A stretch of 26,362 nt of DNA, from the NCBI GenBank assembly GCA_964536295.1, contig CAZHVX010000005.1, positions 1,613 to 27,974 on the forward strand, given 5' to 3'. Shown piece by piece: positions 1 through 24,789 of this stretch (position 1 is the stretch's first letter; each line of letters starts with the position of its first letter). The translations under genes and the position numbers were made by a program. The DNA comes from an uncultured Pseudomonadota bacterium. GTDB taxonomy: Bacteria > UBA10199 > CAZHVX01. The notes under the pieces were generated by a model that searched no databases, was not told the origin of the DNA, and was given only the letters and a program-made list of their open reading frames with translations.

Positions 1-71
1 CTTCAGTGGAAACATATTTGAAGTATGCCGAAGCTATTGGCTTAACAGCTTCAGCCGCAACTCCTGCATAG
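1..71 (+). CDS. gvpA: Partial gas vesicle structural protein GvpA. Only the 3' end is present, truncated by the window edge. The C-terminus reads ...[22 protein letters not shown].
   Basis: In-frame translation of 3-71 matches the C-terminus of the complete gvpA at 330-545 residue for residue. Synonymous nucleotide differences (gcc/gct, cct gca/cca gcg) show a tandem paralog rather than an assembly duplicate. Stop codon TAG lies at 69-71. Confidence 0.8.
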   Translation, partial: SVETYLKYAEAIGLTASAATPA

Positions 72-79
72 AACCGTTT

Positions 80-145
80 AGCAACGCAGTCCGCAAAAGG
101 CGGACGAGGAGCTTAGCGGTTCTTGCCCCGATATTTATCGGGGCG
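80..145 (+). other. Nested or tandem RNA hairpins in the gvpA1-gvpA2 spacer: GTCCGCaaaaGGCGGAC and CCCCGATAtttATCGGGG, enclosed by GAACCG...CGGTTC.
   Basis: Perfect inverted repeats are visible directly in the sequence. There is no T-tract immediately after them, so they look more like processing or stability elements than a clean intrinsic terminator. Confidence 0.45.
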
Positions 146-329
146 TAAATAGTGAACTGCTTAGCTAGGGATTGAAACATTGTGGAGGGTATGCCGAGAT
201 ATCCTGCAAACGCAAAAACGCAAAGAATATTTTTCGCGATTTCGCGGTTACAGCACATCCCGCCAGGAGTCTTCCCGACGGTCAATCCAACAAGGAGAAA
301 AAAATCCATAATAAAGGAGGTGAGTGATC

Positions 330-545
330 ATGGCAGTAGAAAAAAATATGGCATCCTCGAGTCTAGTTGAGGTTATCGATCGTATTTTGGACAAGGGCGT
401 TGTAATTGACGCTTGGGCAAGAGTTTCATTGGTCGGTATCGAACTGTTATCCATCGAAGCAAGAATCGTTTTGGCTTCAGTGGAAACATATTTGAAGTAT
501 GCCGAAGCTATTGGCTTAACAGCTTCAGCTGCAACTCCAGCGTAA
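330..545 (+). CDS. gvpA: Gas vesicle structural protein GvpA.
   Basis: The protein [63 protein letters not shown]... carries the canonical GvpA signature ([43 protein letters not shown]). The RBS AGGAGGTG sits 7 nt upstream of ATG 330. The ORF-track start at 324 is a GTG just upstream in the same frame. Confidence 0.92.
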
Positions 546-650
546 TAGGGGTTTTTTAGTATTGGGCGATGTTTGTCAATGCACCCTAGAAAATAATTTG
601 TAGTGTGTATCGCCAAGTATTCGCACATTCATCATCATGGTGGGGGAAAT

Positions 651-1274
651 ATGTCAGCAACAAATACAGCAACAAAACTAGCGCCGGAAGAAGTAATGGA
701 TTTGAGGGCCTTGGCCGAAGAGATCGTTGCTTCGTATGAAGCACGCGTTGAGGCGGTTGGAAACATTATCGACGCAACTCACGAGATGTTAGAAGGCTAT
801 CGTAACGAGCGGCAAAAAGTGGGTATCGAACTCAAAGAAATCTTGGCCAACGGGGCTTCACTCAGGCGGAAGGATTTTGACAAGATGATGTCTGAGATCT
901 TTGCAAAGCAAGATGAGGCCGAAAAAGAGATTCGCAAGGTTCTAAAGGTGTTTTTACGTGAGCAAAAAGAAATTGCATCGCAGCTAAAGGCCGCTTTGGC
1001 GGGAGGCGATTTTGAAATGCTGAGAAAGATGCAGCTAGAAGTTATTGATATGGTTGAGAAAATGAAAAAAATACTATTGTTGTTTCACAATGAACAACAA
1101 AAATTTACAAAGATTCTTAAAGATTTAAGAAACAAAGGAAGTTCTTTAACAATAAGAGAGTTCAAAGAAGTGATAAGTCAGATGCGAGAACGCGAGAAGC
1201 GAACATCTCCAGTTCAGGAAATGACTGTACCTGATATGGCGGAGATGAGCAGGGTAGCATCGGCAGTGACCTAA
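651..1274 (+). CDS. Coiled-coil, charged hypothetical protein. It is a paralog of the N-terminal and repeat region of the 1377-2369 protein and may be gas-vesicle associated.
   Basis: The RBS GGTGGGGG lies before ATG 651. The ORF-track start at 603 has no RBS and adds an unlikely MCIAKYSHIHHHGGGN leader. It shares the motifs ASYEARVEAV / EAMYENRVKF and EKEIRKVLKVFLREQKEIASQL ~ EIKARTKEVASLLKFFHTEHAKMAKEL with the downstream repeat protein. Confidence 0.5.
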   Translation: MSATNTATKLAPEEVMDLRALAEEIVASYEARVEAVGNIIDATHEMLEGYRNERQKVGIELKEILANGASLRRKDFDKMMSEIFAKQDEAEKEIRKVLKVFLREQKEIASQLKAALAGGDFEMLRKMQLEVIDMVEKMKKILLLFHNEQQKFTKILKDLRNKGSSLTIREFKEVISQMREREKRTSPVQEMTVPDMAEMSRVASAVT

Positions 1275-1376
1275 GGTGAAACGTGTGTGACTGGGTGCGC
1301 AAGCGCTTGGGCTATTATTTAGTCGAAGGGCCTACGCGCTTAGGCACTTAACATAAGCAATCAAGGAGGTGAGATT

Positions 1377-2369
1377 ATGGGGATGTCAGATGATATAAGA
1401 AATTTGGGCAAAGAAATTGAGGCGATGTATGAAAATCGAGTCAAATTCTGCGGACAAATGATAAAAGACGAGTCTGATCGCGTGAAAATGACACGTGATG
1501 AGATCCGCAAACGAATCAAAGAGGTTGGTGGGATGCTCCTAAATTTCAACAAGGAACATTCTGATATGGCAGATGTGCTCCTGAGCACACTTGATAAGAA
1601 TGAAAAACAGAGACAACGCGAAACCAAGGCTGAAAACAAACAGCGTCGCAAGGATGTATTTGCATTCTTGAGCGAAGAAGAGACAAGGCGTTTCAAGGAA
1701 GCCTCAGCCGAAATTAAGGCTCGGACTAAGGAGGTTGCTAGCTTATTGAAGTTCTTCCACACCGAACATGCCAAGATGGCCAAGGAATTGTGTGCGAAGC
1801 TTTCAACTGAAGAGGCTCAAAGATTCAAAGAGACAACTCAAGAGATCAAGCAGAGGATTGTCGAGGTTAGTGAACTCCTGGCCCTTTTCGACGAAGAGCA
1901 TGCCAAGATGGCAAAGGAACTTCGGAGGAAGTTGTCTACTGAGGAGGCACAGAGAGTAAAGGAGACAACCGCTGAAATCGAGGCACGTATCAAGGAGACA
2001 GCAAAACTGCTTAGGTTCTTCCACACAGAACATGCCAAGATGGCTAAAGAACTGTTTAAGAAACTTTCTACTGAGGAGACTCAGAGGGTCAAAGAGACTC
2101 AGGCTGAAATCGAGGCCAGACATCGTGATGTTACCAAGTTCCTGGCTGATTTTCATGCCGAAATGGATGCATTGCACGATGCCTTCGAAAAGATCTTTGC
2201 AACGATGGGCAGGAAAAGATCAGGTGGCGCACGTCATTTGAAGACGGAAAGCAAGCAAGCTCATAGCCAGCTGACTACTACAACCGGGGAGGCAAAACCG
2301 GCGACAAAGCACAAAAAGACCGCACATAAACAGAAGAAAAAAACCAAAAGAAGAACGAAACGTAGTTAA
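1377..2369 (+). CDS. Repeat protein with four tandem 44-aa units (LSTEEAQRxKETTxEIxxRIxExxxLLxFFHTEHAKMAKELxxK) and a basic K/R-rich C-terminal tail. Candidate functional analogue of GvpC.
   Basis: Strong RBS AAGGAGGTG precedes the start. Four near-identical 44-aa repeats span residues 98-273, with degenerate copies further N-terminal. Predicted amphipathic helices resemble the ~33-aa repeat architecture of GvpC, though the unit length differs. The assignment is by analogy only. Confidence 0.55.
   Translation: MGMSDDIRNLGKEIEAMYENRVKFCGQMIKDESDRVKMTRDEIRKRIKEVGGMLLNFNKEHSDMADVLLSTLDKNEKQRQRETKAENKQRRKDVFAFLSEEETRRFKEASAEIKARTKEVASLLKFFHTEHAKMAKELCAKLSTEEAQRFKETTQEIKQRIVEVSELLALFDEEHAKMAKELRRKLSTEEAQRVKETTAEIEARIKETAKLLRFFHTEHAKMAKELFKKLSTEETQRVKETQAEIEARHRDVTKFLADFHAEMDALHDAFEKIFATMGRKRSGGARHLKTESKQAHSQLTTTTGEAKPATKHKKTAHKQKKKTKRRTKRS
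1668..2195 (+). repeat. In-frame 132-bp tandem repeat, four units, encoding the 44-aa repeats of the 1377-2369 protein.
   Basis: Repeated nucleotide strings are visible directly, for example gaacatgccaagatggc(c/a)aa(g/a)gaa(t/c)t three times and ctactgaggag several times. Confidence 0.8.
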
Positions 2370-2439
2370 TATCGATTTTTATCCAGAATCGGCAGGGAGC
2401 CTTTAGAGTTCCCTGTCGGTCAACTGGAGGGAGGATATT

Positions 2440-2754
2440 ATGGGGAACTTGAGATGCGCATTTTGCCACGGCTCTGGAAAGGATCCCTTTGAAATATTAT
2501 CTAAGATGTCAACCTGTCAGGTCTGCAACGGCGTAGGCAAGAATAACATTGAGGATCCAACTCGAACGTGCGTCTTTTGTCAGGGAACAGGGGTTCATCC
2601 TTTTTCAAGGCTTTCTTGCACGGTGTGCAAAGGTAAGGGCCAGATTACATCTAAAGGTAAAGGAAAGAAGTGTTCCGATTGTCATGGGACAGGAAAATCT
2701 TTCGGCGAAAATATGCCGTGTTTGACATGTAAGGGAATGGGGGTTCTCAAATGA
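2440..2754 (+). CDS. Small zinc-finger protein made of six CxxCxGxG repeats. This is the DnaJ cysteine-rich-domain motif, here as a stand-alone DnaJ-like zinc-finger protein.
   Basis: The motifs CAFCHGSG, CQVCNGVG, CVFCQGTG, CTVCKGKG, CSDCHGTG and CLTCKGMG are present. The RBS GGAGGGAGG precedes the start. CxxCxGxG is the defining repeat of the DnaJ/Hsp40 CR domain. Confidence 0.7.
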   Translation: MGNLRCAFCHGSGKDPFEILSKMSTCQVCNGVGKNNIEDPTRTCVFCQGTGVHPFSRLSCTVCKGKGQITSKGKGKKCSDCHGTGKSFGENMPCLTCKGMGVLK

Positions 2755-3215
2755 AACCCAAGATTCTCAAAAAAAGCAATGGAAGGGCCACAATTAAGTG
2801 TACCTTTTGTCATGGTAAAGGCACGGATCCCTTTGAGGTTATGTCTAAGCTATCCCGTTGTTCGATTTGTCATGGCAAAGGTGAGGTGATGATCCAAGAA
2901 CCGTTTGCCCCCTGTGCCTATTGTCATGGTACGGGAGTCCACCGGGACAGCCGTATGAGCTGCCTGGTTTGTCATGGCAAAGGGGTTGTGCATATTGATA
3001 GATCATCGAACACCTGTGAACTTTGTGGCGGAACCGGCAGGCAGCCAGGGGAATATCTCCCTTGTCTAATGTGTAAAGGAAAAGGATTTCTTGTTCCGGG
3101 TGAAATTGTGGCCAAGCGAAAAATTAAGAGTACAGACAAAACAAAGAAGCTGGGCAAAAGTGATAGGTTGAAATTGATGAAAAAAAGAGCAACTTTTGTT
3201 AAACGTGAAACCTGA
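2751..3215 (+). CDS. Second stand-alone CxxCxGxG-repeat zinc-finger protein (six repeats) with a K-rich C-terminal tail.
   Basis: The motifs CTFCHGKG, CSICHGKG, CAYCHGTG, CLVCHGKG, CELCGGTG and CLMCKGKG are present. It shares a 4-bp ATGA overlap with the upstream paralog. Confidence 0.7.
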   Translation: MKPKILKKSNGRATIKCTFCHGKGTDPFEVMSKLSRCSICHGKGEVMIQEPFAPCAYCHGTGVHRDSRMSCLVCHGKGVVHIDRSSNTCELCGGTGRQPGEYLPCLMCKGKGFLVPGEIVAKRKIKSTDKTKKLGKSDRLKLMKKRATFVKRET

Positions 3216-3275
3216 GTTCCTTAAGTAAGGAACCAGTTATCTGTTGGGTTCGTTGTTTTCGTTGTTTTAGTTAGC
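3216..3275 (+). terminator. Candidate intrinsic terminator: hairpin GTTCCTTAagTAAGGAAC followed by a T-rich tract (gttgttttcgttgtttt).
   Basis: A perfect 8-bp inverted repeat sits immediately after the stop at 3213-3215, with T-runs downstream. Confidence 0.5.
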
Positions 3276-3304
3276 TAAATCAACCAACCCAACCGAGGTT
3301 AGAG

Positions 3305-3748
3305 ATGTCAGAGCCCACTAAAAAAGAAGTTTTACAGGAACTCTCCGATTTTTATGACAGAGCTACTTCTCGTACACAATTCTTGAAGAAAAAAACCCAA
3401 GAGGCCTTAAGAACAGGTGAGATTTCCGATGATGTAGATCCACATACACGTGAAGTTATTCGCATGACGATCAATGCCCGTATGAGCCGTCTAAAAAGAA
3501 AATCAGATGTCAAAGAAATAATGCAAAAAATCCATAAAGATAAGATGAAACGACAAGGAGCGGATGAATCTCGTCAGAAGGAAGTTAAAGAATTACTCGG
3601 TGCCTTTCATAAGGACAGGATGAAACTGAAAAAAGCATGGCAAGAGTTGGATGAGACAATGCAACGCCTCAGGCAAGAGGCAGGAGGCACGAAGCAGAAA
3701 TCAGGAATCAGGACGCAGGAAGCGATGATCAAGAAGGCGGGAACGTGA
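3305..3748 (+). CDS. Hypothetical charged, helical protein.
   Basis: The ORF is long with no recognisable motif. Its RBS is weak (GAGGT). Confidence 0.4.
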   Translation: MSEPTKKEVLQELSDFYDRATSRTQFLKKKTQEALRTGEISDDVDPHTREVIRMTINARMSRLKRKSDVKEIMQKIHKDKMKRQGADESRQKEVKELLGAFHKDRMKLKKAWQELDETMQRLRQEAGGTKQKSGIRTQEAMIKKAGT

Positions 3749-3845
3749 ATCATGCCTCATGTTTCGTGTTTCATGCTTCATAAAATTAACAATGGTCGCG
3801 GCAACCGTCCGCCGGACGTTTGAAGCGCCCAAAAAGGAGGGTAAA

Positions 3846-4766
3846 ATGGTAGAAGAATTAACAACAGTATTGGAGCCACAATCACTACCTAATTTTGTAG
3901 AGACACCATATGTAAAAGGGGTTACTGAGCGAGCTTTAGACTATATCAAAGCTGGCTTTCCAGTCCATTTTCGTGGCGTCTCCGGCACAGGTAAGACAAC
4001 CTTGGCCATGCATGTCGCTAGTATTCTTGGCAGACCCGTGGTTATGATCCACGGTGATGAGGAATTCTCTACATCAGACCTGGTGGGAGGTGAACATGGC
4101 TACAGCATGCGGAAGGTGGTCGATAATTTTATCCATTCGGTCTTGAAGACACAGGAAGATATGACCAAAAAGTGGGTAGATAACCGCCTGACGGTTGCAT
4201 GTAAATATGGTTTTACATTGATCTATGATGAATTCACGCGGTCCCGTCCAGAGGCAAACAACGTCCTGCTTTCAATCTTGCAAGAAAAGATGATGGACCT
4301 TCCAGCGGCAAGGGAGGGTGGAGAAGGTTACCTGAAGGTAGACCCAAATTTTACCGCCATCTTTACAAGCAACCCCGAGGAATATGCCGGCGTTCATCGT
4401 TCACAGGATGCCCTTCGTGACCGGATGGTAACACTGGATCTAGATTTTTTCGATGAAGAGACAGAGGTAGAAATTACTACGGCCAAATCTGGTTTGATAA
4501 AACCGGATGCAACAAAGATAGTCAGGATCGTTCGTGACCTAAGGGAATCGGGCGTATGCGAATTTGAGCCGACCGTTCGTGGTTGTATCATGATTGCAAA
4601 GACGTTGTCCGTATCGGATGGAAATAAAGCGATTTCAGCTGATAACCGCAGGTTTGTGGCTATAGCTCAAGATATTTTGGCATCAGAGACATCACGAATC
4701 GGCTCTAAGAGCAATGAAAAGAAGGTAAAAGAAGCAATATTAAAAAGTGTTGAAAAGTACTGCTAA
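3846..4766 (+). CDS. gvpN: Gas vesicle AAA+ ATPase GvpN, copy 1.
   Basis: It has the Walker A motif GVSGTGKTT and Walker B motif LIYDEF. Its length and arrangement match GvpN, and it is ~60% identical by eye to the second copy at 5110. The RBS AAAGGAGGG precedes ATG 3846. The ORF-track start at 3759 adds an implausible leader. Confidence 0.9.
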   Translation: MVEELTTVLEPQSLPNFVETPYVKGVTERALDYIKAGFPVHFRGVSGTGKTTLAMHVASILGRPVVMIHGDEEFSTSDLVGGEHGYSMRKVVDNFIHSVLKTQEDMTKKWVDNRLTVACKYGFTLIYDEFTRSRPEANNVLLSILQEKMMDLPAAREGGEGYLKVDPNFTAIFTSNPEEYAGVHRSQDALRDRMVTLDLDFFDEETEVEITTAKSGLIKPDATKIVRIVRDLRESGVCEFEPTVRGCIMIAKTLSVSDGNKAISADNRRFVAIAQDILASETSRIGSKSNEKKVKEAILKSVEKYC

Positions 4767-4973: not shown

Positions 4974-4980
4974 TTGTGTA

Positions 4981-5087
4981 CGCGGATCTAACGCCGATCT
5001 GCTACACGGATCTAACGCGGATCCATCTATTATAAATGAAAAGATCGGCGTTTGATCAGCGTTGTCGGTCTGCGTTTGATCAGCGCC
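4981..5087 (+). repeat. GATC-rich imperfect palindromic element, copy 1 of 3. It is built from GATCTAACGC / GCGTTTGATC half-sites around an AT-rich centre TTATAAAT, and ends about 10 nt before the gvpN2 RBS.
   Basis: The element cgcGGATCTAACGCcGATCTgctacacgGATCTAACGCgGATCcatctattataaatgaaaaGATCggcgtttGATCagcgttgtcggtctgcgtttGATCagcgcc has at least 8 GATC sites and dyad symmetry. Confidence 0.8.
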
Positions 5088-5109: not shown

Positions 5110-6063
5110 ATGGACTTTTTAGAATCATGTGCTATTCAAATTTCCCCGGATCAACCATCATTTGTTAAATCTCCATATATTGAGGAAATTGTTGGCCGTG
5201 CCATGAACTACATTAAAATTGGGGCACCTGTCCACTTTCAGGGACCGTCCGGTACGGGTAAGACCACATTGGCCATGTACATTGCGGGTAAATTGGGGAA
5301 GCCCACAATACTTATACATGGCGATGAGGAATTTGGCACATCAGATCTGGTTGGGAAAAGCAATGGATATCGTTCCAAACGGGTTTATGACAACTTTATA
5401 CAATCGGTTAAAAAGTTTGATGAAAAGTTCGAATCATCATGGGTTGATAACCGCCTCACCTTGGCCTGCAAACATGGCTGCACTCTTATTTACGATGAAT
5501 TTACTCGTTCGCGACCAGAGGCCAATAATGTCCTTTTATCGGTCCTGGAAGAAAAAATACTTGATATTCCAACTGCTGCTGGTTCCGAAGATGCAAACCT
5601 ACTCCACGTTCATCCGGATTTTACAGTCATTTTTACAAGCAATCCTGAAGAATATGCCGGTGTTCATAAATCGCAGGATGCCTTAAGGGATCGGATGATA
5701 ACGATTAACCTGGATCATTATGACCGGGATTCTGAAATTACTATTACAGAGAAAAAGGCGCAGGTCCCGCGAAAACAGGCCTCGATAATAGTAGATCTGG
5801 TTCGTGATTTTCGAAAAACTGAACAATATAAATTCAGTCCCACGGTGCGCGCTTGCATTATGATTGCAAAAATTTTAAAACTTGGCGGTGCAAAACCAAA
5901 CAGCAAAGACGATTTATTTATGAGGACCTGCTTTGACATCCTTGATCCGGAGACATATCGCGTTGTCGGCACTGGAAAGGAAGAGATGAATAGAAACAAG
6001 GCACGTACAATCATAACGAAGTTGGTGGCAAAACACTGCGATAATGGGGGAAAGACAAAATAA
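5110..6063 (+). CDS. gvpN: Gas vesicle AAA+ ATPase GvpN, copy 2.
   Basis: It has the Walker A motif GPSGTGKTT and is collinear with copy 1 (the motifs NRLT.ACK.G.TLIYDEFTRSRPEANNVLLS and FTSNPEEYAGVH.SQDALRDRM are shared). The RBS AGGAGGTG is present. Confidence 0.9.
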   Translation: MDFLESCAIQISPDQPSFVKSPYIEEIVGRAMNYIKIGAPVHFQGPSGTGKTTLAMYIAGKLGKPTILIHGDEEFGTSDLVGKSNGYRSKRVYDNFIQSVKKFDEKFESSWVDNRLTLACKHGCTLIYDEFTRSRPEANNVLLSVLEEKILDIPTAAGSEDANLLHVHPDFTVIFTSNPEEYAGVHKSQDALRDRMITINLDHYDRDSEITITEKKAQVPRKQASIIVDLVRDFRKTEQYKFSPTVRACIMIAKILKLGGAKPNSKDDLFMRTCFDILDPETYRVVGTGKEEMNRNKARTIITKLVAKHCDNGGKTK

Positions 6064-6407: not shown

Positions 6408-6504
6408 GCCGCTGATCTAACGCGGATCTACTACGCTGATCAAGCACAGATCTTTATAATAAAGGATCAGCGTTAGATCGGCGTTGTGGATCAGCGTTAG
6501 ATCC
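6408..6504 (+). repeat. GATC-rich imperfect palindromic element, copy 2 of 3, ending about 10 nt before the RBS of the 6525 gene.
   Basis: The element gctGATCTAACGCgGATCTactacgctGATCaagcacaGATCTttataataaagGATCaGCGTTAGATCggcgttgtgGATCaGCGTTAGATCcg has the same half-sites and AT-rich centre as copies 1 and 3. Confidence 0.8.
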
Positions 6505-6524
6505 GTGTTTACAAAGGAGGGAAA

Positions 6525-6923
6525 ATGGAAAAACATACCGAAGAATTCACATGGCAACCATATCGACATGCAGGTGGAAAGGCTAGAGTTGGGAAAAAAG
6601 GACAACTATTAAAAGGCTCGACGTTCGATTGCGCCTTTTGTAATGGCACCGGAGAAAAGCCGCGTGGATCAAAGTGTTCAGTTTGTCGGGGCGAAGGAAA
6701 GATAAAGGTTGATCCACCAGCTGTATATTGCGCCTATTGTCATGGACGGGGTGAGACTCCACCACGCAGCAATTGTACCTGTACCGTTTGTCGTGGTAAG
6801 GGCGTGGTAAGTATCCAACAGCCGGTTGAGGCCTGTGCTCATTGTCGTGGAACGGGGGCCGAACCGGGCAACAAACTGCCTTGTTTAAAGTGCCGCGGTA
6901 AGGGTGTTGTAGCGAAGAAATAA
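6525..6923 (+). CDS. Third stand-alone CxxCxGxG-repeat zinc-finger protein (DnaJ CR-like), with an N-terminal extension.
   Basis: The motifs CAFCNGTG, CSVCRGEG, CAYCHGRG, CTVCRGKG, CAHCRGTG and CLKCRGKG are present. The RBS AAAGGAGGG precedes the start. Confidence 0.7.
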   Translation: MEKHTEEFTWQPYRHAGGKARVGKKGQLLKGSTFDCAFCNGTGEKPRGSKCSVCRGEGKIKVDPPAVYCAYCHGRGETPPRSNCTCTVCRGKGVVSIQQPVEACAHCRGTGAEPGNKLPCLKCRGKGVVAKK

Positions 6924-8546: not shown

Positions 8547-9110
8547 ATGACCGAAAAGAAAAAAGAAAAAGAAAAGGATGGAGCCGATTTTGACATTGGT
8601 AGTCTTGGAGATTTGGGTGGAACAATTGGCGGTATATTTAAGGGACTAGGTGGTTTGATTGATTTGGCTTCAAAGTTAAAAGAAGCCGGTGGTGAGATGA
8701 ACAAGGCCGGTGAGTTCGATTTAGGTGAGAAGTTTAAAAATCTCAAAGGCGCCTATGGTTTTAACATCCGAACGGCAACTGGTAAAGATGGTACGGAAAA
8801 ACCGATAGTTGAACCCATTGGCAGAAAGGTGAGGGAAACTCCCGAAGGGCCGGTGGTGGAGGAAGAACTAGAACCGATTGTCGATGTATTCGATGAGGTC
8901 GATAAAATACAGGTAGTTGCTGAATTACCGGGCGTTACAGAAGATAAGATTAGTTATGAAATCGAAGGTGATATCCTAACCTTACATGCCGAGGGAAAAA
9001 AGAAATACAGCAAGGAGATATTGCTTTCATCCGCAGTTGATAAGGATGGTGTTACTACTTCGTACAAGAATGGAGTCTATGAATTAAAGATGAAGAAAGT
9101 AAAGCAGTAG
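8547..9110 (+). CDS. Hsp20/alpha-crystallin family small heat-shock protein, with a G-rich N-terminal region.
   Basis: The C-terminal alpha-crystallin-like fold VDVFDEVDKIQVVAELPGVTEDKISYEIEGDILTLHAEG...YELKM carries the 'AELPGV' and I-x-I/V-like motifs. The RBS AGGAGGAAA precedes the start. Confidence 0.75.
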   Translation: MTEKKKEKEKDGADFDIGSLGDLGGTIGGIFKGLGGLIDLASKLKEAGGEMNKAGEFDLGEKFKNLKGAYGFNIRTATGKDGTEKPIVEPIGRKVRETPEGPVVEEELEPIVDVFDEVDKIQVVAELPGVTEDKISYEIEGDILTLHAEGKKKYSKEILLSSAVDKDGVTTSYKNGVYELKMKKVKQ

Positions 9111-9119
9111 GAGAACAAA

Positions 9120-11309
9120 GTGGCAGACAAAAAACCAAAGAAATCGCAAAAAGGCACGACAAAAAAGAATGGCCTTCCGCTCAAGGTGGCCGAGGCCTTG
9201 AGTAAAGACGTCGGTCGCGGTATTGCCAGAATTGATCCTGCTTATATGGAAAACCTGGGCGTTTCTATCGGAGATATCGTTCAAATCGATGGGAAGCGTA
9301 AAACTGTTGCCAAGATTATGCCCACATATATGGATGACCGCGGCAAGAAGCTTATACAAATAGACGGTGTTGTCAGGGAAAATGCCAAATCTGGTCTTGA
9401 TGACAGGGTGTTTGTTGACAAGGCATCACATAATCCGGCCAGTCAAATTGTCCTGACTGCGTTGACTGCGGCTCCGGCACGTGGTGAAGATGCCCGTTAT
9501 ATTGGCAGGCTTTTCGAAGGGCTTCCTTTGGTGTCGGGCGATAGGGTAAGGGCCACACTCTTTGGTACACGCTCGCGTGATTTTAAAGTGGTCAGCACCA
9601 GCCCTGAAGGTGTGGTTTTGGTAACACCCACAACAAACATAAAGATCAAGGGTGAAAAGAAGGCTGCAGAGGAAAGGGGACCTCACGAGGTTTCATATGA
9701 AGACGTTGGAGGCTTGGGTAAGGAAATAAATAAGATTCGCGAGATGATCGAACTTCCATTACGGTATCCGCAGGTCTTTGATCGTCTGGGCATTGATCCT
9801 CCAAAGGGCGTGTTATTACACGGACCTCCAGGAACTGGAAAAACTTTAATTGCAAGGGCGGTTGCCCATGAATCGGAGGCAAACTTTTTTTCCGTTAACG
9901 GTCCTGAGATTGTGCATAAATTTTACGGTGAATCAGAGGCGCATCTTCGATCCATTTTTGAAAAGGCGGCGGAGGCGGCTCCTTCAATAATCTTTATTGA
10001 TGAAATAGATGCCATTGCGCCCAAACGTGCCGAGGTGACTGGCGATGTGGAAAAGCGCATCGTTGCTACACTTCTGGCTATGATGGACGGGCTTAAAGGT
10101 CGGGGTCAAGTCATTGTTATTGGCGCCACAAATATTCCAGATGTTATGGATCCGGCGCTTCGTCGTCCGGGCCGTTTTGATCGAGAGATTGTGATCGGTA
10201 TTCCAGACAAGAATGGCCGTGAACAAATTTTAGATATTCACACGCGAGGTATGCCACTGACCGAAGATGTCGACATTGGACATTTTGCGGCAATTACGCA
10301 TGGCTATGTTGGCGCCGATTTGGAAGCGCTTGCTCGTGAAGCAGCTATGATTTCGCTTCGTAAGGTCTTCGATAAGGTGGATTTTAATCTCGATGAAATA
10401 CCTTATGAAACATTGGTTTCTTTGGAAGTCAACATGGATTGTTTTATTCGGGCGCTCAACGAAGTTACACCCTCGGCCATACGCGAGGTCTTTGTAGAGG
10501 TTCCGGATGTTAAGTGGGAAGATGTTGGCGGTCTTGAAGATACGAAAGAGATCCTTAAAGAAACAGTGGAGTGGCCTTTAAAATATGAAAGACTTTTTGC
10601 TCATGCGAACGCCAAGGCGGCCAAAGGTATTTTGTTGGACGGCCCTCCGGGAACGGGTAAGACCTTGCTAGCAAAGGCCCTGGCCAATGAGAGTGAGGTG
10701 AACTTTATCTCCATTAAAGGACCTGAGCTCATAAGTAAATGGGTCGGCGAAAGTGAAAAGGGCGTTCGTGAAATATTCAAAAAAGCCAGACAGGCTGCTC
10801 CTTGCATTTTGTTCTTTGATGAAATCGACAGCATTGCACCAAGACGCGGTGGAGGCGAAGGAGATTCCGGTGTTACCCAAAGGGTTATAAGCCAATTTTT
10901 GACTGAACTCGACGGCCTTGAAGAGTTAAAGGGCGTGGTGATCCTGGGGGCAACCAACCGAAAAGACATCCTTGATCCAGCATTGATTCGTACCGGCAGG
11001 TTTGATTTATCAATAACACTCCCGATACCCGATTTCAAATCCAGAGAGGCAATATTCGAGGTCCATACAAGGAATAAGCCATTGGAGAAAAAGATCAATT
11101 TTAAGGAGATGGCCAGGGCAACTGAAGGTATGGTTGGGTCCGATATCGAGGAAGTGTGCCGGCAGGCTATCATGTTGGCGTTAAGAGAGTTTATCCACAA
11201 ATATGAGGATGACGCCAACAAGGAATGTGAGAAGTTCAAGGTCAAGGCCTCTCATTTTACAGAGGCATTAAAATACATAAAGAAGCAAAAAAGAGGTACA
11301 AGCCAATGA
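9120..11309 (+). CDS. Cdc48/VCP/VAT-type ATPase with two AAA domains and an N-terminal Cdc48-N domain.
   Basis: N-domain: [37 protein letters not shown]1 has Walker A GPPGTGKT, Walker B IIFIDEID and the SRH motif [14 protein letters not shown]2 has [17 protein letters not shown] and [10 protein letters not shown]. The start is GTG with AGGAG 8 nt upstream. Confidence 0.9.
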
Positions 11310-12346
11310 AATATTTTCATGGTATCATAAGTAAGGGGGAGGAAATAAATTTCGGCTCCATTGGATTTCCACTTGCGGATTTTGAAACAAAATTTGGTAA
11401 TGTATTTACAGTTCCCTATGAAAATATGGGGGCAGTAGTCAGCGACATAGACGATATGGATTTTCAAACCCCGGATAAAGAGATGTTGGTACGAAGACTT
11501 TTGGTTCATCAAAAGGTGTTGGAGCATGTTGTTAAAGAAGGTTGTGGAATTTTGCCTGTGAAATTTGGTACGTGTCTAAATGATGTCGATGAGGCCTTGA
11601 AAGTTATGAAGATTGGTTATTTTAAATTCGAAGATGCAAGCAGAAGAATGGGGAAAAAACACGAGCTGGATTTGGTGGTTACATGGGATACTAATAAGAA
11701 GCTTAAAGAGGTAGCCCTGGAAAGTCAGGAAATACAACACTTTAAGCAGAAGATTGAAAAGATGCCAGAATCTAAATCTGCCGCTGAAAAGATGAAGATA
11801 GGGATGATGCTTCAAAAAGAGCTTCATCACGTCCGGGACGGAATTTCACGTGAGATTTTGTCGACCCTGGTTGATATTACCAAGAGTCGATCGGACCACG
11901 AGCTTATGGATGATAATATGGTAATTAATTCATCTTTTCTTTTGAATGACATGGAGGAAAAGACATTTGATAAAATATTGGCTGGGCTGGATTCCAGGTT
12001 TAACGGCGAATTGAATTTTAAATGTTTAACACCACTACCACCATATAGTTTTGCTACTGTTGAAATCAAAACGATAGAATTTGAAGAAATAGAAAAGGCC
12101 TGGAACTTGTTTGATTTTGGGAAAAAGACAACACTTAATGAAATTAAGGAAGTTAATCGGAAACTAACCAAGGAATGGCATCCTGATAAAAGGCCAGGGG
12201 ATCATGAGGCCCAGATCAAATTTGAAGGCCTGAACACCTCATATAAAACACTTTTGGATTATTGTGAAAGTGGGAAGGCCTCCCTTCCCAAAAAGGGCGA
12301 GAAGTTTTTTAAAGTAAATGTCGTTAAGGCAGAGGAGATGTTATGA
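11306..12346 (+). CDS. gvpF: GvpF/GvpL-family protein fused to a C-terminal J-domain (DnaJ-type, HPD motif).
   Basis: The N-terminus and core (YFHGIIS...AVVSD..., LVHQKVLEHV, LPVKFGT, and C-terminal LNFKCLTPLPPYSF) are collinear with the GvpF paralogs at 12343 and 13201. The C-terminal 75 aa, NEIKEVNRKLTKEWHPDKRPGDHEAQIKFEGLNTSYKTLLDY, carries the J-domain HPD tripeptide. There is a 4-bp overlap with the upstream cdc48-like gene. Confidence 0.8.
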   Translation: MKYFHGIISKGEEINFGSIGFPLADFETKFGNVFTVPYENMGAVVSDIDDMDFQTPDKEMLVRRLLVHQKVLEHVVKEGCGILPVKFGTCLNDVDEALKVMKIGYFKFEDASRRMGKKHELDLVVTWDTNKKLKEVALESQEIQHFKQKIEKMPESKSAAEKMKIGMMLQKELHHVRDGISREILSTLVDITKSRSDHELMDDNMVINSSFLLNDMEEKTFDKILAGLDSRFNGELNFKCLTPLPPYSFATVEIKTIEFEEIEKAWNLFDFGKKTTLNEIKEVNRKLTKEWHPDKRPGDHEAQIKFEGLNTSYKTLLDYCESGKASLPKKGEKFFKVNVVKAEEML

Positions 12347-13092
12347 CTACAGAAGGCAAGTATATATATTGCATCATCGGAACCAGTGATCCAAGGCACT
12401 TTGGTCCCATCGGCATCGGTGAACGGAACGATGAGGTGACTACAATTGGTGCCAGGGATATCTCTGCCATTGTCAGCAATACTCCGATGGAAAAGTATGT
12501 TGTCAGTAGAGAAAATCTAACTGCCCATGAAAAGATAATTGAAAAGGTGATGTCAGAATATACGGTGTTACCCGTCCGCTTTTGTACCGTTGCTACCAGT
12601 ACGCAGGAGGTGATGGATTGCTTGAAGAGGCGTTATCCCGAGTTCAAAAACCTGCTAAGAGATATGGATAACAAGGTAGAAGTTGGTTTGAAGGTAGTTT
12701 GGAATGACATGCAAACGGTGTTCGATGAACTTGTAGCTGAAAATGATGATATAAGACAGATGAAAGAAGCTGGCAAAATAAAGAAACGTAATGATTTAAT
12801 AAATGCTGGTAAAATTGTCGAAGCCATCTTGGAAGAGAAAAGAAGTATGGAGGAGGGAAGATTATTTCGTGACTTAAAGAAGGTTGCATCAGATTTTAAG
12901 AGTGCCAAGCGACATGGTGATAATATGTTGACCAATGCTGCGTTTCTGCTCGATAAGGGACGGCAGCGAGCATTTGATAATCAAGTAGAAACTTTGGTGG
13001 AGGAGAATAAGGATCGATTTACGGTTAATTATGTCGGTCCGGCACCTCCGTTTAATTTTGTAAACATTGAGATAAAATTTGCAGGGGAATAA
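12343..13092 (+). CDS. gvpF: Gas vesicle protein GvpF/L family.
   Basis: The N-terminus KYIYCIIG... and the C-terminal VGPAPPFNFV are typical GvpF features. There is a 4-bp overlap with the upstream gene. Confidence 0.85.
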   Translation: MTTEGKYIYCIIGTSDPRHFGPIGIGERNDEVTTIGARDISAIVSNTPMEKYVVSRENLTAHEKIIEKVMSEYTVLPVRFCTVATSTQEVMDCLKRRYPEFKNLLRDMDNKVEVGLKVVWNDMQTVFDELVAENDDIRQMKEAGKIKKRNDLINAGKIVEAILEEKRSMEEGRLFRDLKKVASDFKSAKRHGDNMLTNAAFLLDKGRQRAFDNQVETLVEENKDRFTVNYVGPAPPFNFVNIEIKFAGE

Positions 13093-13200
13093 AAAGTGTA
13101 TAGGTGTATAAGTGTATGAGTTTTTAAGTTAGGAAATGAAAAATTTAGACATTTTAACTTATATACTTATACACTCAAAAACTTATACACTAGTAAAGAT
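13093..13200 (+). promoter_or_regulatory. Intergenic module 1. Forward 8-bp tandem units (GTGTATAG GTGTATAA GTGTATGA GTTTTTAA) are followed by a central AT-rich segment and then the same units in reverse orientation (CTTATATA CTTATACA CTCAAAAA CTTATACAC).
   Basis: The direct and inverted octamer arrays are seen directly. The module lies immediately upstream of the gvpF at 13201. Confidence 0.55.
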
Positions 13201-13959
13201 ATGACAGAGCTTGGACAATACATATATTGCATAATAGGGGCCGACGAACCGAAACAGTTCGAATCGATTGGAATAGACGATTCTCATCCAGAGATATATA
13301 CTGTTAATTATGAAGGCTTGGCTGCCGTGGTGAGCGATTCGCCGGTGAAGACATATCAACTCTCACGCGCCAATATGATGGCCCATCAAAAGGTCTGTGA
13401 AGAGGCAATGAAAGGACATACAGTCTTGCCGGTCAAGTTTTGTACGATTGCCGAGAAGAAAGGAATGATAGAAGAAAAGGTCTTAAAGAGACGCTATAAA
13501 GAATTTCAAAAAATGATGATAGATATGAATGGTAAAACTGAACATGGCCTTAAGATGCTTTGGATGGATATAGACAAGGTGTTTGCACAGATCGTGGAGG
13601 AAAACGAGGATATCAAGGGACTGCGTGATTCTTTAAAATGGAAGCCGCATACGAAAATTCACTACGATATGATTCATGTGGGTGAAATGGTTGAAGCGGC
13701 CCTGAAGGAAAAGAAGAAGAATTTCGTAAAGGAAATAGTTAAACCTCTTAAGTTGCTTGCTGAGGATTGCCGTGAAAATGATACTCATGGAGACAAAATG
13801 ATCATAAATGCATCTTTTCTAGTGAGTGAAGAGAATCAATCCGAATTTGATAATCGAATTGGTGAATTAGAAGCTTCTTATAAAGAGGATATAAAAATAA
13901 AATACGTAGGTCCCATTCCACCATTCAATTTTGTAGAAATTGTGGTGCATTGGGACTGA
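13201..13959 (+). CDS. gvpF: Gas vesicle protein GvpF/L family.
   Basis: QYIYCIIG..., AAVVSD, LPVKF.T and C-terminal VGPIPPFNFV are present. It is paralogous to 12343-13092. Confidence 0.85.
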   Translation: MTELGQYIYCIIGADEPKQFESIGIDDSHPEIYTVNYEGLAAVVSDSPVKTYQLSRANMMAHQKVCEEAMKGHTVLPVKFCTIAEKKGMIEEKVLKRRYKEFQKMMIDMNGKTEHGLKMLWMDIDKVFAQIVEENEDIKGLRDSLKWKPHTKIHYDMIHVGEMVEAALKEKKKNFVKEIVKPLKLLAEDCRENDTHGDKMIINASFLVSEENQSEFDNRIGELEASYKEDIKIKYVGPIPPFNFVEIVVHWD

Positions 13960-14061
13960 TGGGAGTGTATGAGTATATGAGTGCATAAGTACATAAGCAT
14001 ATAAGTTGAAGTGATTGAAATTTCTATAATCTAATTTAGAAACTTATACACTGAGGTTAAT
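13960..14061 (+). promoter_or_regulatory. Intergenic module 2. An octamer array (GTGTATGA GTATATGA GTGCATAA GTACATAA GCATATAA) is followed by the conserved core AGTTGAAGTGATTGAAATTTCTATAATCTAATTTAGAAACTTATACAC, which contains a perfect TATAAT at 14025-14030. Candidate gvpG promoter or operator.
   Basis: The ~48-bp core is ~90% identical to 17126-17173. TATAAT is present. The -35 is ambiguous: TTGAAG sits 13 bp upstream. Confidence 0.55.
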
Positions 14062-14427
14062 ATGGGTTTAATATTAAACATACTGGGGGCACCGATAGCG
14101 GGGCCAATTAGGTTCTTACAGTGGACGGCCGAAAAGGTAAATGAAACCGTTCATAAAGAAAGGACTGACAAATCTAAGATCCAGGCGGAACTTCTATCGC
14201 TCCAGATGCGCATGGAAATGGATGATATTACCGAAGAAGAATTTACAAAGAGAGAAGATGAACTTCTGGCGCGATTAGATGAAATTAATAAAATCGAAAC
14301 AGGTGAACCAATAGAAAAGAAAACAAAAAAGAAAAGGGGGGCTTATGCCAAAGAAAAGAAAGCTGGGCAGGTCGATCAGCAAAAAGAAGAAAACGACAAA
14401 GAAAGTGACGAAGAAGAAGACGTTTAA
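14062..14427 (+). CDS. gvpG: Gas vesicle protein GvpG, with an acidic/basic low-complexity C-terminal extension.
   Basis: The N-terminus MGLILNILGAPIAGPIRFLQWTAEKV..., followed by EEEF..RE.EL...L, is the conserved GvpG pattern. The last ~35 aa come from purine-rich low-complexity DNA that is also read in another frame by the 14345 ORF. Confidence 0.75.
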   Translation: MGLILNILGAPIAGPIRFLQWTAEKVNETVHKERTDKSKIQAELLSLQMRMEMDDITEEEFTKREDELLARLDEINKIETGEPIEKKTKKKRGAYAKEKKAGQVDQQKEENDKESDEEEDV

Positions 14428-14716
14428 GAAAGCAGCAAAGAAAAAGACAGCGAAGAAGGCGACAAAGAAGACAACAAAGAAGACGACAAAGAAGACAACG
14501 GCAAAGAAAAAGACAGCTAAGAAGGCGACAAAGAAGACAACCAAGAAGAAAGCGGCAAAGAAAAAAACAGCTAAGAGAAAAGACAAAGCCACTTTACTAA
14601 AAGTAGAAAAGAGGCAGGTCCTTTCAGAAATTCAGGCATTACGTGAAAAGTTAAGAAAAGCACGTGCTAAGAATATTAAGCAAAGACAAACAGATTTTAC
14701 TAAATACACACGCTGA
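14345..14716 (+). CDS. Lysine-rich, histone-H1-like basic protein with K-K-T/A-T/A-K-K repeats. Candidate DNA- or surface-binding protein. It overlaps the 3' end of gvpG in the +1 frame.
   Basis: An independent RBS-like run AAAAGGGGGG sits 5 nt before ATG 14345. The protein MPKKRKLG...KKTTKKVTKKKTFKKAAKKKTAKKATKKTTKKTTKK... has a non-repetitive C-terminal 40 aa (LLKVEKRQVLSEIQALREKLRKARAKN), which suggests real coding. Low-complexity DNA gives open frames easily, so caution is needed. Confidence 0.45.
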   Translation: MPKKRKLGRSISKKKKTTKKVTKKKTFKKAAKKKTAKKATKKTTKKTTKKTTAKKKTAKKATKKTTKKKAAKKKTAKRKDKATLLKVEKRQVLSEIQALREKLRKARAKNIKQRQTDFTKYTR

Positions 14717-15112: not shown

Positions 15113-17089
15113 ATGGAGAATAAAAAATCTCCATCCTTTTTGACTAATGGTCAAAAAAGACTGATATTTTTTGGTGGCAAAGGCGGCGTGGGTAAAACCA
15201 CCACCGCCGCCGCGTCAGCCATTTTTATAGCCAGGCAATTTCCTCAAAAAAAGGTTCTTGTTCTCTCCACCGATCCCGCACATTCCTTGTCCGATTGTTT
15301 TGAGATATTGCTTAATGATGAGGTTTCTTCGATAAATGGGTTGTCGAACCTCTTTGCTAGAGAATTAGATGCTGCTCGTTTATTAGATGCGTTCAAAGAT
15401 AAGAATGAAAAGATTATCAAGGTGTTGGCCGAAAGGGGAACCTATTTTGATAATGAGGATATTGAAAGTTTCTTTTCTTTATCACTCCCCGGTATGGATG
15501 AAGTAATGGCGGTTATAGAGATATATAATCTTTTTGTAAAAGGTGAGTATGAAACGATTATTATCGATACCGCGCCTACCGGCCATACTATGAGACTGCT
15601 TTTACTTCCTAACCAACTGGAGCAATGGATAGATCTTTTTAACTTGATGCAAGAAAAGCATCGGATCATGACTCGCCGTTTTTCCGGAAGATATGCGCCT
15701 GATGAGGCAGATAAATTTCTTGAAGATTTGACTCATGACCTGAAAGAAATGAGGAGCCTGCTTTCCAATCCTGCTATTACGGAGTTTGTTCCAATCACCA
15801 TCCCTGAGAAAATGAGCTTTAATGAAACGTGTAGACTTCTTGGGGTCTTGAGAGATTGTCATATGCCGGTAAGGAATATTATTGTTAACAACGTGATAAA
15901 GTCTGAGTCTTGTGAATATTGCCAAAAACAATATGAGGCACAAAAATCTGCCATAGAAAAAATCAGGAATTTATTTAAAGATTTTAATATAATGCACATG
16001 CCGCTATATCCGAAGGAGGTGCGGGGAGTCAATGCGCTCAGCGAATTTGCAGGCAGTTTAGTGGGTGAAGAAGTAAACTTTCAAGGGATGGTTCATAGGT
16101 CCAAAAGGAGTGATGGTGATCAACGTATCAAACTTGAACGTTTTCTAAACGACGATTTACAGATGTTGCTTGTTGGAGGCAAAGGAGGAGTTGGAAAGAC
16201 ATCAATTGCAACTGCACTTGCATTAAAGTTTTCCGGGAAATATCCAGATAAAAAAGTCTTACTTTTTTCTACCGATCCTGCCCATTCCTTGTCGGATAGC
16301 CTTGGGCAAGAAATAGGGAATAAAGTAACACAAGTCCAGGCAAGGCCTCTTGCTTCAAATTTATTTGCCATCGAAATCAATGCTGAAAAACTATTTGATG
16401 ATTTCGCAAAAAAATACAAAAGAGAAATAGATGATGTATTTGATGGTTTTTTCAATAGCTCATCTACAGCGGGAATGGATTTTAGCTACGATCGAAGTCT
16501 GATGAAAAAACTTATAAACGTATCGCCTCCTGGACTGGATGAATTGATGGCCTTAAAGGAAATCATGAATTACATAGATAAAGATACATACGATTTCTAC
16601 ATCTTGGATACCGCTCCAACTGGGCATTTGCTACGTTTTTTGGAGCTGCCTTCATTGGTACAAGGCTGGCTGAAGGCAATCTTTAGGCTTTTGATTAAAT
16701 ATGAAGGTATGGTGAATTTGAACAGTGTGGCAGAAAAGATGGTGGAACTTTCAAAGAGTGTAAAGCGGATCAAGGCGATCCTTTGCGATTCCAAAAGGGC
16801 CAAATTTCTTGCAGTTACTATTCCTGAAGCAATGGGGTTTGAAGAGACAAAAAGGCTTGTGGATTCACTTCACAATTTGGATATAGCGTGCACGGGTCTT
16901 GTCATTAATAAAATTTTCCCCAGTGTAAAGTGTGGCTTTTGTGGAATAAAAAGGGACGAACAATTAGAATATGCTAAAAAGATAGAGAAGAAACTTAATA
17001 TAAAACATGTTGCCCGCGTACCTCTGTTTCCATCAGAGATCGTGGGGGTTGAAAAATTAACAAAGTTTGGAGACAGAGCTTTTTATTAG
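15113..17089 (+). CDS. Fused tandem ArsA/Get3-family ATPase (two complete ArsA-like halves).
   Basis: There are two deviant Walker A P-loops (GGKGGVGKTTTAA and GGKGGVGKTSIAT). There are two STDPAHSLSD motifs. Two A-loop or signature motifs, DTAPTGHT(M/L)R(L/F)L, are present. The fused-dimer architecture is typical of ArsA and Get3 anion-pump or tail-anchored targeting ATPases. Confidence 0.85.
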   Translation: MENKKSPSFLTNGQKRLIFFGGKGGVGKTTTAAASAIFIARQFPQKKVLVLSTDPAHSLSDCFEILLNDEVSSINGLSNLFARELDAARLLDAFKDKNEKIIKVLAERGTYFDNEDIESFFSLSLPGMDEVMAVIEIYNLFVKGEYETIIIDTAPTGHTMRLLLLPNQLEQWIDLFNLMQEKHRIMTRRFSGRYAPDEADKFLEDLTHDLKEMRSLLSNPAITEFVPITIPEKMSFNETCRLLGVLRDCHMPVRNIIVNNVIKSESCEYCQKQYEAQKSAIEKIRNLFKDFNIMHMPLYPKEVRGVNALSEFAGSLVGEEVNFQGMVHRSKRSDGDQRIKLERFLNDDLQMLLVGGKGGVGKTSIATALALKFSGKYPDKKVLLFSTDPAHSLSDSLGQEIGNKVTQVQARPLASNLFAIEINAEKLFDDFAKKYKREIDDVFDGFFNSSSTAGMDFSYDRSLMKKLINVSPPGLDELMALKEIMNYIDKDTYDFYILDTAPTGHLLRFLELPSLVQGWLKAIFRLLIKYEGMVNLNSVAEKMVELSKSVKRIKAILCDSKRAKFLAVTIPEAMGFEETKRLVDSLHNLDIACTGLVINKIFPSVKCGFCGIKRDEQLEYAKKIEKKLNIKHVARVPLFPSEIVGVEKLTKFGDRAFY

Positions 17090-17214
17090 TGCAAAAGTGT
17101 TTAAGTGTATAAGTGTATGAGTATATAAGTGTAGAAGTTGAAGTAATTGAAATTTCTATAATCTAACTTAAAAACTCATACACTTAAACACTTATGGACT
17201 TAAGGGAGGTATTT
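17090..17214 (+). promoter_or_regulatory. Intergenic module 3. An octamer array (GTGTTTAA GTGTATAA GTGTATGA GTATATAA GTGTAGAA) is followed by the conserved core AGTTGAAGTAATTGAAATTTCTATAATCTAACTTAAAAACTCATACAC, with TATAAT at 17156-17161, and then reverse octamers. Candidate gvpJ-K-L promoter or operator.
   Basis: The core is near-identical to module 2. It sits immediately upstream of gvpJ. Confidence 0.55.
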
Positions 17215-18651: not shown

Positions 18652-18682
18652 GTGTATGAGTGTATGAGTTGGAGAGTTGAAT
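18640..18682 (+). promoter_or_regulatory. Intergenic module 4 (short): GTGCATAA GTGTATGA GTGTATGA GTTGGAGA octamer units upstream of the four-helix-bundle gene.
   Basis: The GTGTATRA unit family is the same as in modules 1 to 3. Confidence 0.45.
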
Positions 18683-19048: not shown

Positions 19049-19096
19049 AAACAAAAACTTATGGACTTATAAACTTATACACTCATACACTTATTT
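19049..19096 (+). promoter_or_regulatory. Intergenic module 5: reverse-orientation octamers (ACTTATGG ACTTATAA ACTTATAC ACTCATAC ACTTATTT) directly abutting the gvpM start.
   Basis: These are the reverse complement of the GTGTATRA family. There is no RBS between the module and ATG 19097. Confidence 0.45.
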
Positions 19097-22550: not shown

Positions 22551-22657
22551 AATGGTAGAAAAATCTAGCGAGATTAAATGTTCAATATTTCAAAAGGAAG
22601 AGTGGGTTGCAAAACAACTAACTTCCTACATTATATTGATGTAAAATAAACGAACTT

Positions 22658-24778: not shown

Positions 24779-24789
24779 TTCTTTTGAAT

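Follow-up and report, generated by a model that had tools for sequence, protein, structure and literature searches.

The gas vesicle protein GvpC is, to our knowledge, the sole known determinant of shell strength besides vesicle width, and it provides a handle for tuning and functionalising gas vesicles as acoustic reporters. In Serratia as in cyanobacteria and haloarchaea, its gene is found in the same slot, flanked by gvpA and gvpN. The GvpC of Anabaena runs along the ribs of the vesicle on helix alpha2 of the shell protein GvpA, where one 33-residue repeat spans four subunits (PMC9994262; PMC10903477). Haloarchaeal GvpC shows looser helical repeats of 32-40 residues, a linker and a compact C-terminal domain, which in Halobacterium is a zinc-finger motif (PMC10903477; PMC9372576). 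The gvp cluster of Desulfobacterium vacuolatum DSM 3385 (FWXY01000008:1268-24724) forms vesicles in Escherichia coli (Hurt et al.). Here we analyze a stretch of 26,362 nt from contig CAZHVX010000005.1, referred to as the window and used as a whole for all numbering. It carries a full gas-vesicle cluster in which two open reading frames (ORFs), A (651-1274) and B (1377-2369), lie in the gvpC slot between gvpA (330-545) and gvpN (3759-4766). Both ORFs and their order after gvpA had been pointed out in a preliminary description of this DNA, and both were indeed found on the plus strand downstream of gvpA. Our reading is that B is probably a very divergent protein of the GvpC lineage, an external brace along the GvpA ribs.

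The preliminary description had proposed that A and B are GvpC analogues, either convergent or very divergent. The gene slot, a set of intermediate sequences and the predicted helix of B point to the latter, a very divergent homolog. The intermediates are B-type proteins from other genomes with repeats of 33 residues. In these proteins QAKDLADFVDDLSRTVKGFLTGFRKNHQQMSKE is placed in register with GvpC QAQELQAFYKDLQETSQQFLSETAQARIAQAEK, and the alignment to GvpC is collinear from the head through three repeats, keeping Q26, L30, F33, L4, F11 and L12; the conserved GvpC residues used for the register are those named in PMC9994262. The Anabaena GvpC sequence used here is supported by database proteins that are nearly identical to it and contain PF01304. 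A hidden Markov model (HMM) built from five proteins of the 33-residue type retrieved cyanobacterial GvpC at E-values of 5.5e-10 to 1e-9, with no unrelated ORF ranked higher, and it also matched window B and, at E 1.3e-12, window A. By hhalign, the same group aligned with the window-B family at 100% probability (E 7e-49) and with GvpC at E 5.9e-5. Since one and the same subset of sequences matches both cyanobacterial GvpC and window B, B appears to be a very divergent GvpC homolog. The sequence case for placing B in the GvpC lineage, with A as a more distant member, is convincing, and the link is transitive because the window-B family and GvpC gave no significant match when compared directly.

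Searches with a full-length GvpC HMM pointed the same way. This model matched ORFs located at the B position of related loci, with 35.8 bits (E 8e-10) for L024, 25.3 bits for L028 and 22.9 bits for L019 and L045 (to E 1e-5), against control scores of at most 8.6 bits for residue shuffles, about 1.7 bits for reversed sequences and up to 25.6, 22.9 and 22.5 bits for shuffles of eleven-residue blocks. Further B-position ORFs were matched down to E 1e-3, and the A-type ORFs were unmatched. The absence of a canonical GvpC from the window, as stated in the preliminary description, was borne out: PF01304 and TIGR02641 had no match among the proteins tested, and no window ORF scored better than E 0.96 with the cyanobacterial GvpC HMM. 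Likewise, no separate canonical GvpC was found in the related loci, where the GvpC HMM matched only ORFs of the A/B family at E<1.

B is a protein of 330 amino acids that can be divided into three parts, all encoded on the plus strand. An N-terminal head (MGMSDDIRNLGKEIEAMYENRV), whose motif is found in nearly all members of the family, and degenerate repeats form residues 1-87 (1377-1637); four 44-residue repeats, three of them well conserved, form residues 88-263 (1638-2165); and a disordered basic tail forms residues 276-330 (2202-2366). The preliminary description had counted four near-perfect repeats of 44 residues. The periodicity stands, with three good units and a weaker one, and the wording "near-perfect" does not. 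The units at residues 132-175, 176-219 and 220-263 are identical pairwise at 26-30 of 44 residues (59-68%) in the 44-residue register, in which the 132-nt DNA copies show 61-63% identity. The unit at residues 88-131 shares 20-24 of 44 residues with those three, and the units before residue 88 are barely recognisable (5-7 of 44). A repeat search of the DNA gave three copies in B at 132-nt spacing, 62-72% identical, and Tandem Repeats Finder reported no repeat in the B region. The unit consensus for the family is LLkdFdeeHaEMA.ELKAKLakdEaeRVKETqAEIKeRiaEV, and the 44-residue repeat of B is the 33-residue unit lengthened by 11 residues, that is, by three helical turns. The basic tail that had been likened to GvpC is real, with an isoelectric point (pI) of 12 and 19 Lys plus Arg residues against 2 Asp plus Glu; the likeness fails, as cyanobacterial GvpC has no such tail.

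AlphaFold, run with an alignment of 34 sequences, modelled B as one helix from residue 3 to residue 281, with a predicted local distance difference test score (pLDDT) mostly of 85-95, followed by the disordered tail. At 1.5 Å per residue this helix would be about 42 nm long. Its hydrophobic moment peaks at 98 degrees per residue, which corresponds to 3.67 residues per turn (z 3.9). The moment at 98.2 degrees was 0.239 for B and 0.250 for A, whereas at the heptad angle of 102.9 degrees it was 0.064 and 0.021, respectively. The amphipathic helical nature that had been ascribed to the repeats is supported for B by the model and the moment. The term coiled coil, used in the preliminary description for both proteins, is the wrong one, because the periodicity is strong at 98 degrees and almost nil at the heptad angle; the AlphaFold model of B is a single uninterrupted helix. 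A periodicity of 3.67 residues is what surface-lying helices show. The conserved positions of the repeat unit (1, 2, 5, 9, 12, 13, 16, 20, 24, 27, 34, 35, 38 and 42) form one stripe at this pitch. Across the family the spacing between repeat anchors was 51 residues in 45 cases, 44 in 12, 69 in 11, 33 in three and 58 in three, so that the differences between the periods are 7, 11 or 18 residues and amount to whole helical turns. Such differences are expected if the stripe stays in phase along a rigid partner. A further idea, that each repeat period equals a whole number of GvpA subunits, was not retained as a result. At the Anabaena spacing of 12.7 Å the periods of 33, 44, 51, 58 and 69 residues correspond to 3.9, 5.2, 6.0, 6.9 and 8.1 subunits, and the fit of these five values is no better than chance allows; we keep it as a prediction.

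The gene order of the window recurs in other genomes. A genome scan with the A-type motif LR[RK]KD[FY][DE][KS]M gave 35 loci, all of them from metagenome-assembled genomes (MAGs) or single-cell genomes, and their ORFs were annotated with the A and B HMMs and with the GvpA, zinc-finger and GvpN proteins of the window. The order gvpA, A-type, B-type, zinc finger, gvpN was observed in these 35 loci, which represent about ten phyla, and in six metagenome contexts. Wherever the sequence suffices, the family member lies 3' of gvpA and 5' of gvpN, and the window gvpN (3759-4766) matches the GvpN of all related loci with 360-506 bits. The taxa, as labelled, are Ignavibacteriales/Melioribacteraceae, Victivallales, Planctomycetia/Pirellulales, Nitrospirae/Thermodesulfovibrionia, Omnitrophota, many Patescibacteria, Syntrophaceae, Desulfobacula and other Proteobacteria. 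A zinc-finger ortholog adjoins the B-type gene in most loci, and in those of Patescibacteria it is placed between A and B. Because one such CxxCxGxG gene is present in nearly every related locus across phyla, we suggest that it encodes a dedicated, undescribed accessory protein of gas vesicles.

Complete-looking gvpA-A-zinc finger-B-gvpN modules were also seen on contigs assigned to Patescibacteria, or candidate phyla radiation (L027, L029-L037, L039, L040 and L043), an assignment for which misbinning is possible. Their carriers are MAGs and one single-cell genome, assigned to Saccharibacteria, Falkowbacteria, Gribaldobacteria and Minisyncoccales. Gas vesicles in these ultrasmall episymbionts would be notable.

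The family is without a description in the literature that could be searched, and its members appear in the source databases as "hypothetical protein" or, in one case, under a spurious label. Scans with Pfam and NCBIfam were made for A, B and their relatives, and no family model reached its threshold for A or B. An exhaustive phmmer search of 1.84 billion cluster representatives yielded 56 proteins at E<1e-3, 16 of them at E<1e-10. A word-index homolog search gave two relatives of B and, besides A itself, one of A; a metagenome scan with B gave only distant relatives (34-42% identity), and no close relative of B was present in the collections searched. Among PDB sequences the B-family profile detected neither a relative nor a GvpC chain. 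Nearly all members have in common the N-terminal head M-G-I-A-D-D-I-K-x-L-G-E-E-I-V-A-S-Y-E-x-R-V, repeats built on LLxxFxxxHxEMAxxLxxxL and the closing motif ER..MA..WQ.L...M...R.G.

The C-terminal ends of the family are more diverse. Most members continue with a linker rich in Pro, Glu and Lys and then a domain of about 55 residues, whose profile matches the winged helices of MarR, IclR/TtgV, CAP and Z-alpha at E 1e-3 to 0.1; several members show weak Pfam matches to MarR_2, HTH_24 and IclR. Other members end in a K/R-rich tail, as B does, or in a short acidic segment, and P0031 ends in a segment resembling a helix-hairpin-helix. The B-type protein of a Saccharibacteria MAG (L030:2725-3303) was observed to carry a C-terminal C2H2 finger (Pfam zf-C2H2_6, 28 bits, above the cut-off).

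Protein A (207 amino acids) is related to B at E 2e-7 and 25% identity by BLASTP and at E 4e-24 with the B-family HMM. The two are therefore paralogs, as the preliminary description had noted, and A is more than a shortened copy of B, as it has a subfamily motif of its own (SYExR ... SLRRKDFDKMM). An N-terminal head with SYEARV is followed by three to four helices of about 45 residues that start with SLRRKDFDKMM or variants of it, and the A-type alignment contains 15 invariant columns, including SYExR and SLRRKDFDKMM. Because the same gene order recurs across the related loci, the A-types and B-types are two separately conserved paralog groups, not the outcome of a recent duplication. AlphaFold placed helices in A at residues 12-68, 73-118, 121-162 and 168-184, with breaks at Gly-containing turns; the model is weak, with a pLDDT of 68 and a predicted template modelling score of 0.52 from an alignment of two sequences. 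Foldseek comparison of this model with the PDB listed only generic long-helix proteins, all at E>0.1, and hence no significant neighbour. A is an anciently duplicated paralog, always co-encoded with B, and probably acts as a second surface-bound component or as one that assists B.

A small helical ORF of 147 amino acids (3305-3748, plus strand) lies between the zinc-finger genes and gvpN and carries the closing motif of the family, LLGAFHKDR..KKAWQEL..M..LR. It matched B-type proteins by phmmer at E 1e-4 and the B-family HMM at E 2.8e-9, which is weak evidence, and judging from its sequence it may be a third, short paralog. Small ORFs with weak matches to the B HMM were also seen at the equivalent position of L010, L019 and L045.

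The most likely role of B, by analogy with GvpC, is that of an external brace on the GvpA ribs that stiffens the shell. The surface to which it would bind is conserved. The window GvpA has 60 of 71 residues in common with Anabaena GvpA, whose sequence as used here agrees with the residue numbering in PMC9994262, and helix alpha2 (residues 51-61) is the same except for V61I, with Glu52 and Glu59 both present. We propose that the B helix would lie on the outside of the vesicle along a GvpA rib, its face of Leu, Phe and Met packing between the alpha2 helices that are exposed there and hardly differ from those of Anabaena, and its basic and His residues pairing with Glu52 and Glu59. In this way one B molecule could tie about 33 neighbouring GvpA subunits together and raise the collapse pressure. 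The basic C-terminal tail would project from the shell as an add-on module, at the place where relatives have a winged-helix-like domain, a C2H2 finger or a K/R tail. The step from a homolog in the gvpC slot to a protein that binds and strengthens the vesicle is one that we infer.

Several observations weigh against this assignment. PF01304 and TIGR02641 gave no match at E<=1 for A or B, and they also missed the intermediates with 33-residue repeats and the other relatives; in positive controls the curated GvpC models scored 123 bits for P0062 and 100 bits for P0067. The direct hhalign comparison of the window-B family with GvpC reached a probability of 1% and E 0.054, which is not significant, and it paired both N-terminal heads in register. 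Even for the 33-residue group the probability of the match to GvpC was only 65%, and the match of the five-sequence HMM to window B (E 2e-17) shows a high composition bias. Arg19, conserved in GvpC, is His in the B family. In the same measure of the hydrophobic moment, Anabaena GvpC peaks at 109 degrees and B at 98, and the 44 residues of a B repeat (66 Å) cover a non-integer number of GvpA subunits at the Anabaena spacing. The presence of B on the vesicle, moreover, is a proposal from sequence, synteny and a predicted structure. The preliminary description had recommended profile comparison and structure prediction against GvpC among the checks on its proposal; the former supports the relationship by way of the intermediates and not directly, and the predicted long helix is in agreement with it.

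Other explanations of A and B have to be considered beside a brace. The genes could encode a helical coat or cytoskeletal protein of the phasin, PspA/Vipp1 or apolipoprotein-like kind that merely neighbours gvpA. Some relatives do show sub-threshold Pfam matches to Apolipoprotein, ApoLp-III and PhaP_Bmeg, the last in two relatives at E 0.002-0.004, and a Foldseek search with the A model retrieved BAR domains and PspA/Vipp1, every one at E>0.1 and PspA/Vipp1 only at E>0.2. Yet no match reaches the threshold of any family, the arrangement with gvpA and gvpN does not vary from phylum to phylum, and the reciprocal significant matches are to GvpC, which makes this explanation highly improbable. For A and B themselves, Pfam and NCBIfam gave no phasin or PspA match, the best hit being phas_rel_Lepto at E 0.53. 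Homology to such an unrelated family, which the preliminary description had named as evidence that would contradict it, was thus looked for with Pfam, NCBIfam and Foldseek and none was significant. It is also conceivable, though we consider it unlikely, that A, B or both are an assembly scaffold or holdase that acts transiently on GvpA or on nascent ribs, together with the zinc-finger proteins and GvpN, and is absent from mature vesicles. The module always includes a CxxCxGxG zinc-finger protein, with the GvpN ATPase after it, in a cluster unusually rich in chaperones (Hsp20, a Cdc48-like AAA protein, ArsA, DnaK and a GvpL/F-J domain fusion); A is modelled as broken helices and not as a single rod; and the C-terminal domain of Halobacterium GvpC binds GvpN, GvpO and other accessory proteins (PMC9372576). 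B, however, appears to be homologous to GvpC, a stable surface component, and its long unbroken amphipathic helix with one conserved stripe suits a periodic lattice and not an unfolded client. Furthermore, the whole-turn changes of the repeat period suggest a constraint from a rigid, periodic partner.

Another possibility is that the helix docks on the vesicle and the C-terminal module binds DNA or RNA. This would be compatible with bracing, and it could serve either to couple the level of free protein to gvp transcription or, for the positioning or partition of vesicles, to anchor them at the nucleoid. The pI of 12 of the B tail, the winged-helix-like domain of about 55 residues (E 1e-3 to 0.1) at the end of the majority of relatives, the C2H2 finger of L030 above the Pfam cut-off and the helix-hairpin-helix-like end of P0031 all speak for it. 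Nevertheless, every fold assignment of the C-terminal domain is weak, contacts between proteins are also made by winged helices, haloarchaeal GvpC uses its C-terminal globular domain to bind other Gvp proteins and not DNA, some relatives have short acidic ends, and related loci already encode dedicated regulators upstream of gvpA. We therefore regard a tether or regulator as a rather doubtful role. A speculative version, to which we give a low probability, is that this lineage of GvpC proteins is bifunctional, with a rod that coats the vesicle and an interchangeable C-terminal module that binds nucleic acid. If so, the module would physically tether vesicles to the nucleoid and so position or partition them, or protein left off the vesicle would act back on gvp transcription and match the supply of shell protein to shell area; the zinc-finger protein and the obligate paralog A would belong to the same unexplored layer. 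Bracing of the GvpA ribs by B remains our preferred reading.

The remainder of the locus agrees with a gas-vesicle cluster. The tandem gvpA genes mentioned in the preliminary description are real, because the start of the window (1-70, plus strand) is 96% identical to 475-544 and its translation fits the C-terminus of GvpA, so that it corresponds to the 3' end of an upstream gvpA copy. The complete gvpA at 330-545 (plus strand) was recognized by Pfam Gas_vesicle (3.4e-16) and NCBIfam GvpA (1.8e-39). A and B are both preceded by good Shine-Dalgarno sites. A scan of positions 1-3900 for promoters and terminators gave no more matches than expected by chance. Downstream of B, on the plus strand, are two genes for CxxCxGxG zinc-finger proteins of the DnaJ central-domain type, at 2440-2754 (Pfam DnaJ_CXXCXGXG, 2.8e-10) and 2751-3215 (3.5e-12), and a further small protein with CxxCxGxG repeats is encoded on the same strand at 6525-6923. 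The gvpN at 3759-4766 (plus strand), an AAA+ gene (Pfam AAA_5, 9.3e-19), forms the downstream border of the gvpC slot, and a second gvpN, also recognized by AAA_5, is located at 5110-6063. Beyond the gvpN genes the cluster encodes GvpO, Hsp20, a Cdc48-like AAA protein, GvpL/F, GvpG, ArsA, GvpJ, GvpK and DnaK.

Other features were observed in the window. The plus-strand gene at 11306-12346 encodes one of the GvpL/F copies, which is fused to a DnaJ J domain, and the other chaperone-type genes, for Hsp20, a Cdc48-like double AAA ATPase, a two-domain ArsA, DnaK and a J-domain/TPR-like protein, lie at 8547-11309, 15113-17089 and 19945-23380. A Lys-rich ORF at 14345-14716 (plus strand), with TKK/AKK repeats and then a helical end, has a composition like that of histone H1; its frame differs from that of gvpG, whose 3' end it overlaps, and tandem DNA repeats lie beneath it at 14378-14585. 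Between gvp genes lie intergenic arrays that consist of the 8-bp unit AAGTGTAT together with its complement ATACACTT and make up long imperfect hairpins, at 13092-13202, 13964-14071, 17085-17203, 18640-18702 and 19034-19102; one of these has 36-nt arms (17095-17130 and 17166-17201) that are 83% complementary. A GATC-rich element of about 55 nt (CGCGGATCTAACGCCGATCTGCTACACGGATC...) occurs in both orientations at 4974-5036, 6410-6516 and 24781-24845, in copies 71-93% identical; it flanks the region of the second gvpN, and another copy follows the cluster.

If B and its relatives are GvpC-type proteins, these would be far more widespread than annotated, extending to Planctomycetota, Omnitrophota, Ignavibacteriota, Nitrospirota, Desulfobacterota, Verrucomicrobiota-related lineages and even Patescibacteria MAGs, and genes now called hypothetical could receive a profile model. 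Their natural series of repeat lengths (33, 44, 51, 58 and 69) can be used to test how a helical brace keeps its register with the GvpA lattice. The family also adds two unstudied partners that are always co-encoded, the paralog A and the DnaJ-type zinc-finger protein, as well as the C-terminal modules.

Among known proteins, the binders with 11-residue repeats, such as apolipoproteins and perilipins, resemble B in their long helices with 3.67 residues per turn that lie flat on a surface, and the phasin PhaF has a Lys-rich tail that binds DNA next to a helix that binds the granule. The resemblance to these proteins and to PhaF-type phasins is an analogy only, without a significant match in sequence or fold, and the surface bound by B would be a protein lattice instead of lipid or polyester. 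The GvpC of Halobacterium salinarum is similar to the family by description, with variable repeats, a linker and a C-terminal domain, and the protein of L030 likewise has a zinc-finger end. However, haloarchaeal GvpC is an acidic protein, and the C-terminal module of the family is a winged-helix-like domain or a basic tail. The closest counterpart is the cyanobacterial GvpC (PF01304; TIGR02641), for example that of Anabaena flos-aquae. Its gene also lies between gvpA and gvpN, its product is an all-helical protein in which tandem repeats follow an N-terminal head, with conserved Leu and Phe residues on one face of the helix, as in B, and the GvpA surface that it binds, helix alpha2, is conserved in the window. 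The two differ in repeat length (33 residues against 44 in B and 51 or 69 in most relatives), in the hallmark LLxxFxxxHxxMAxxL of the family with His in place of Arg19, in the basic tail of B or the globular C-terminal domain of its relatives, and in the constant association of B with the paralog A and a zinc-finger protein. What is new here is a probable GvpC type, widespread in uncultured anaerobes, whose repeats are longer and vary in length, which has a zinc-finger partner and an obligate paralog, and whose C-terminal modules can be swapped.

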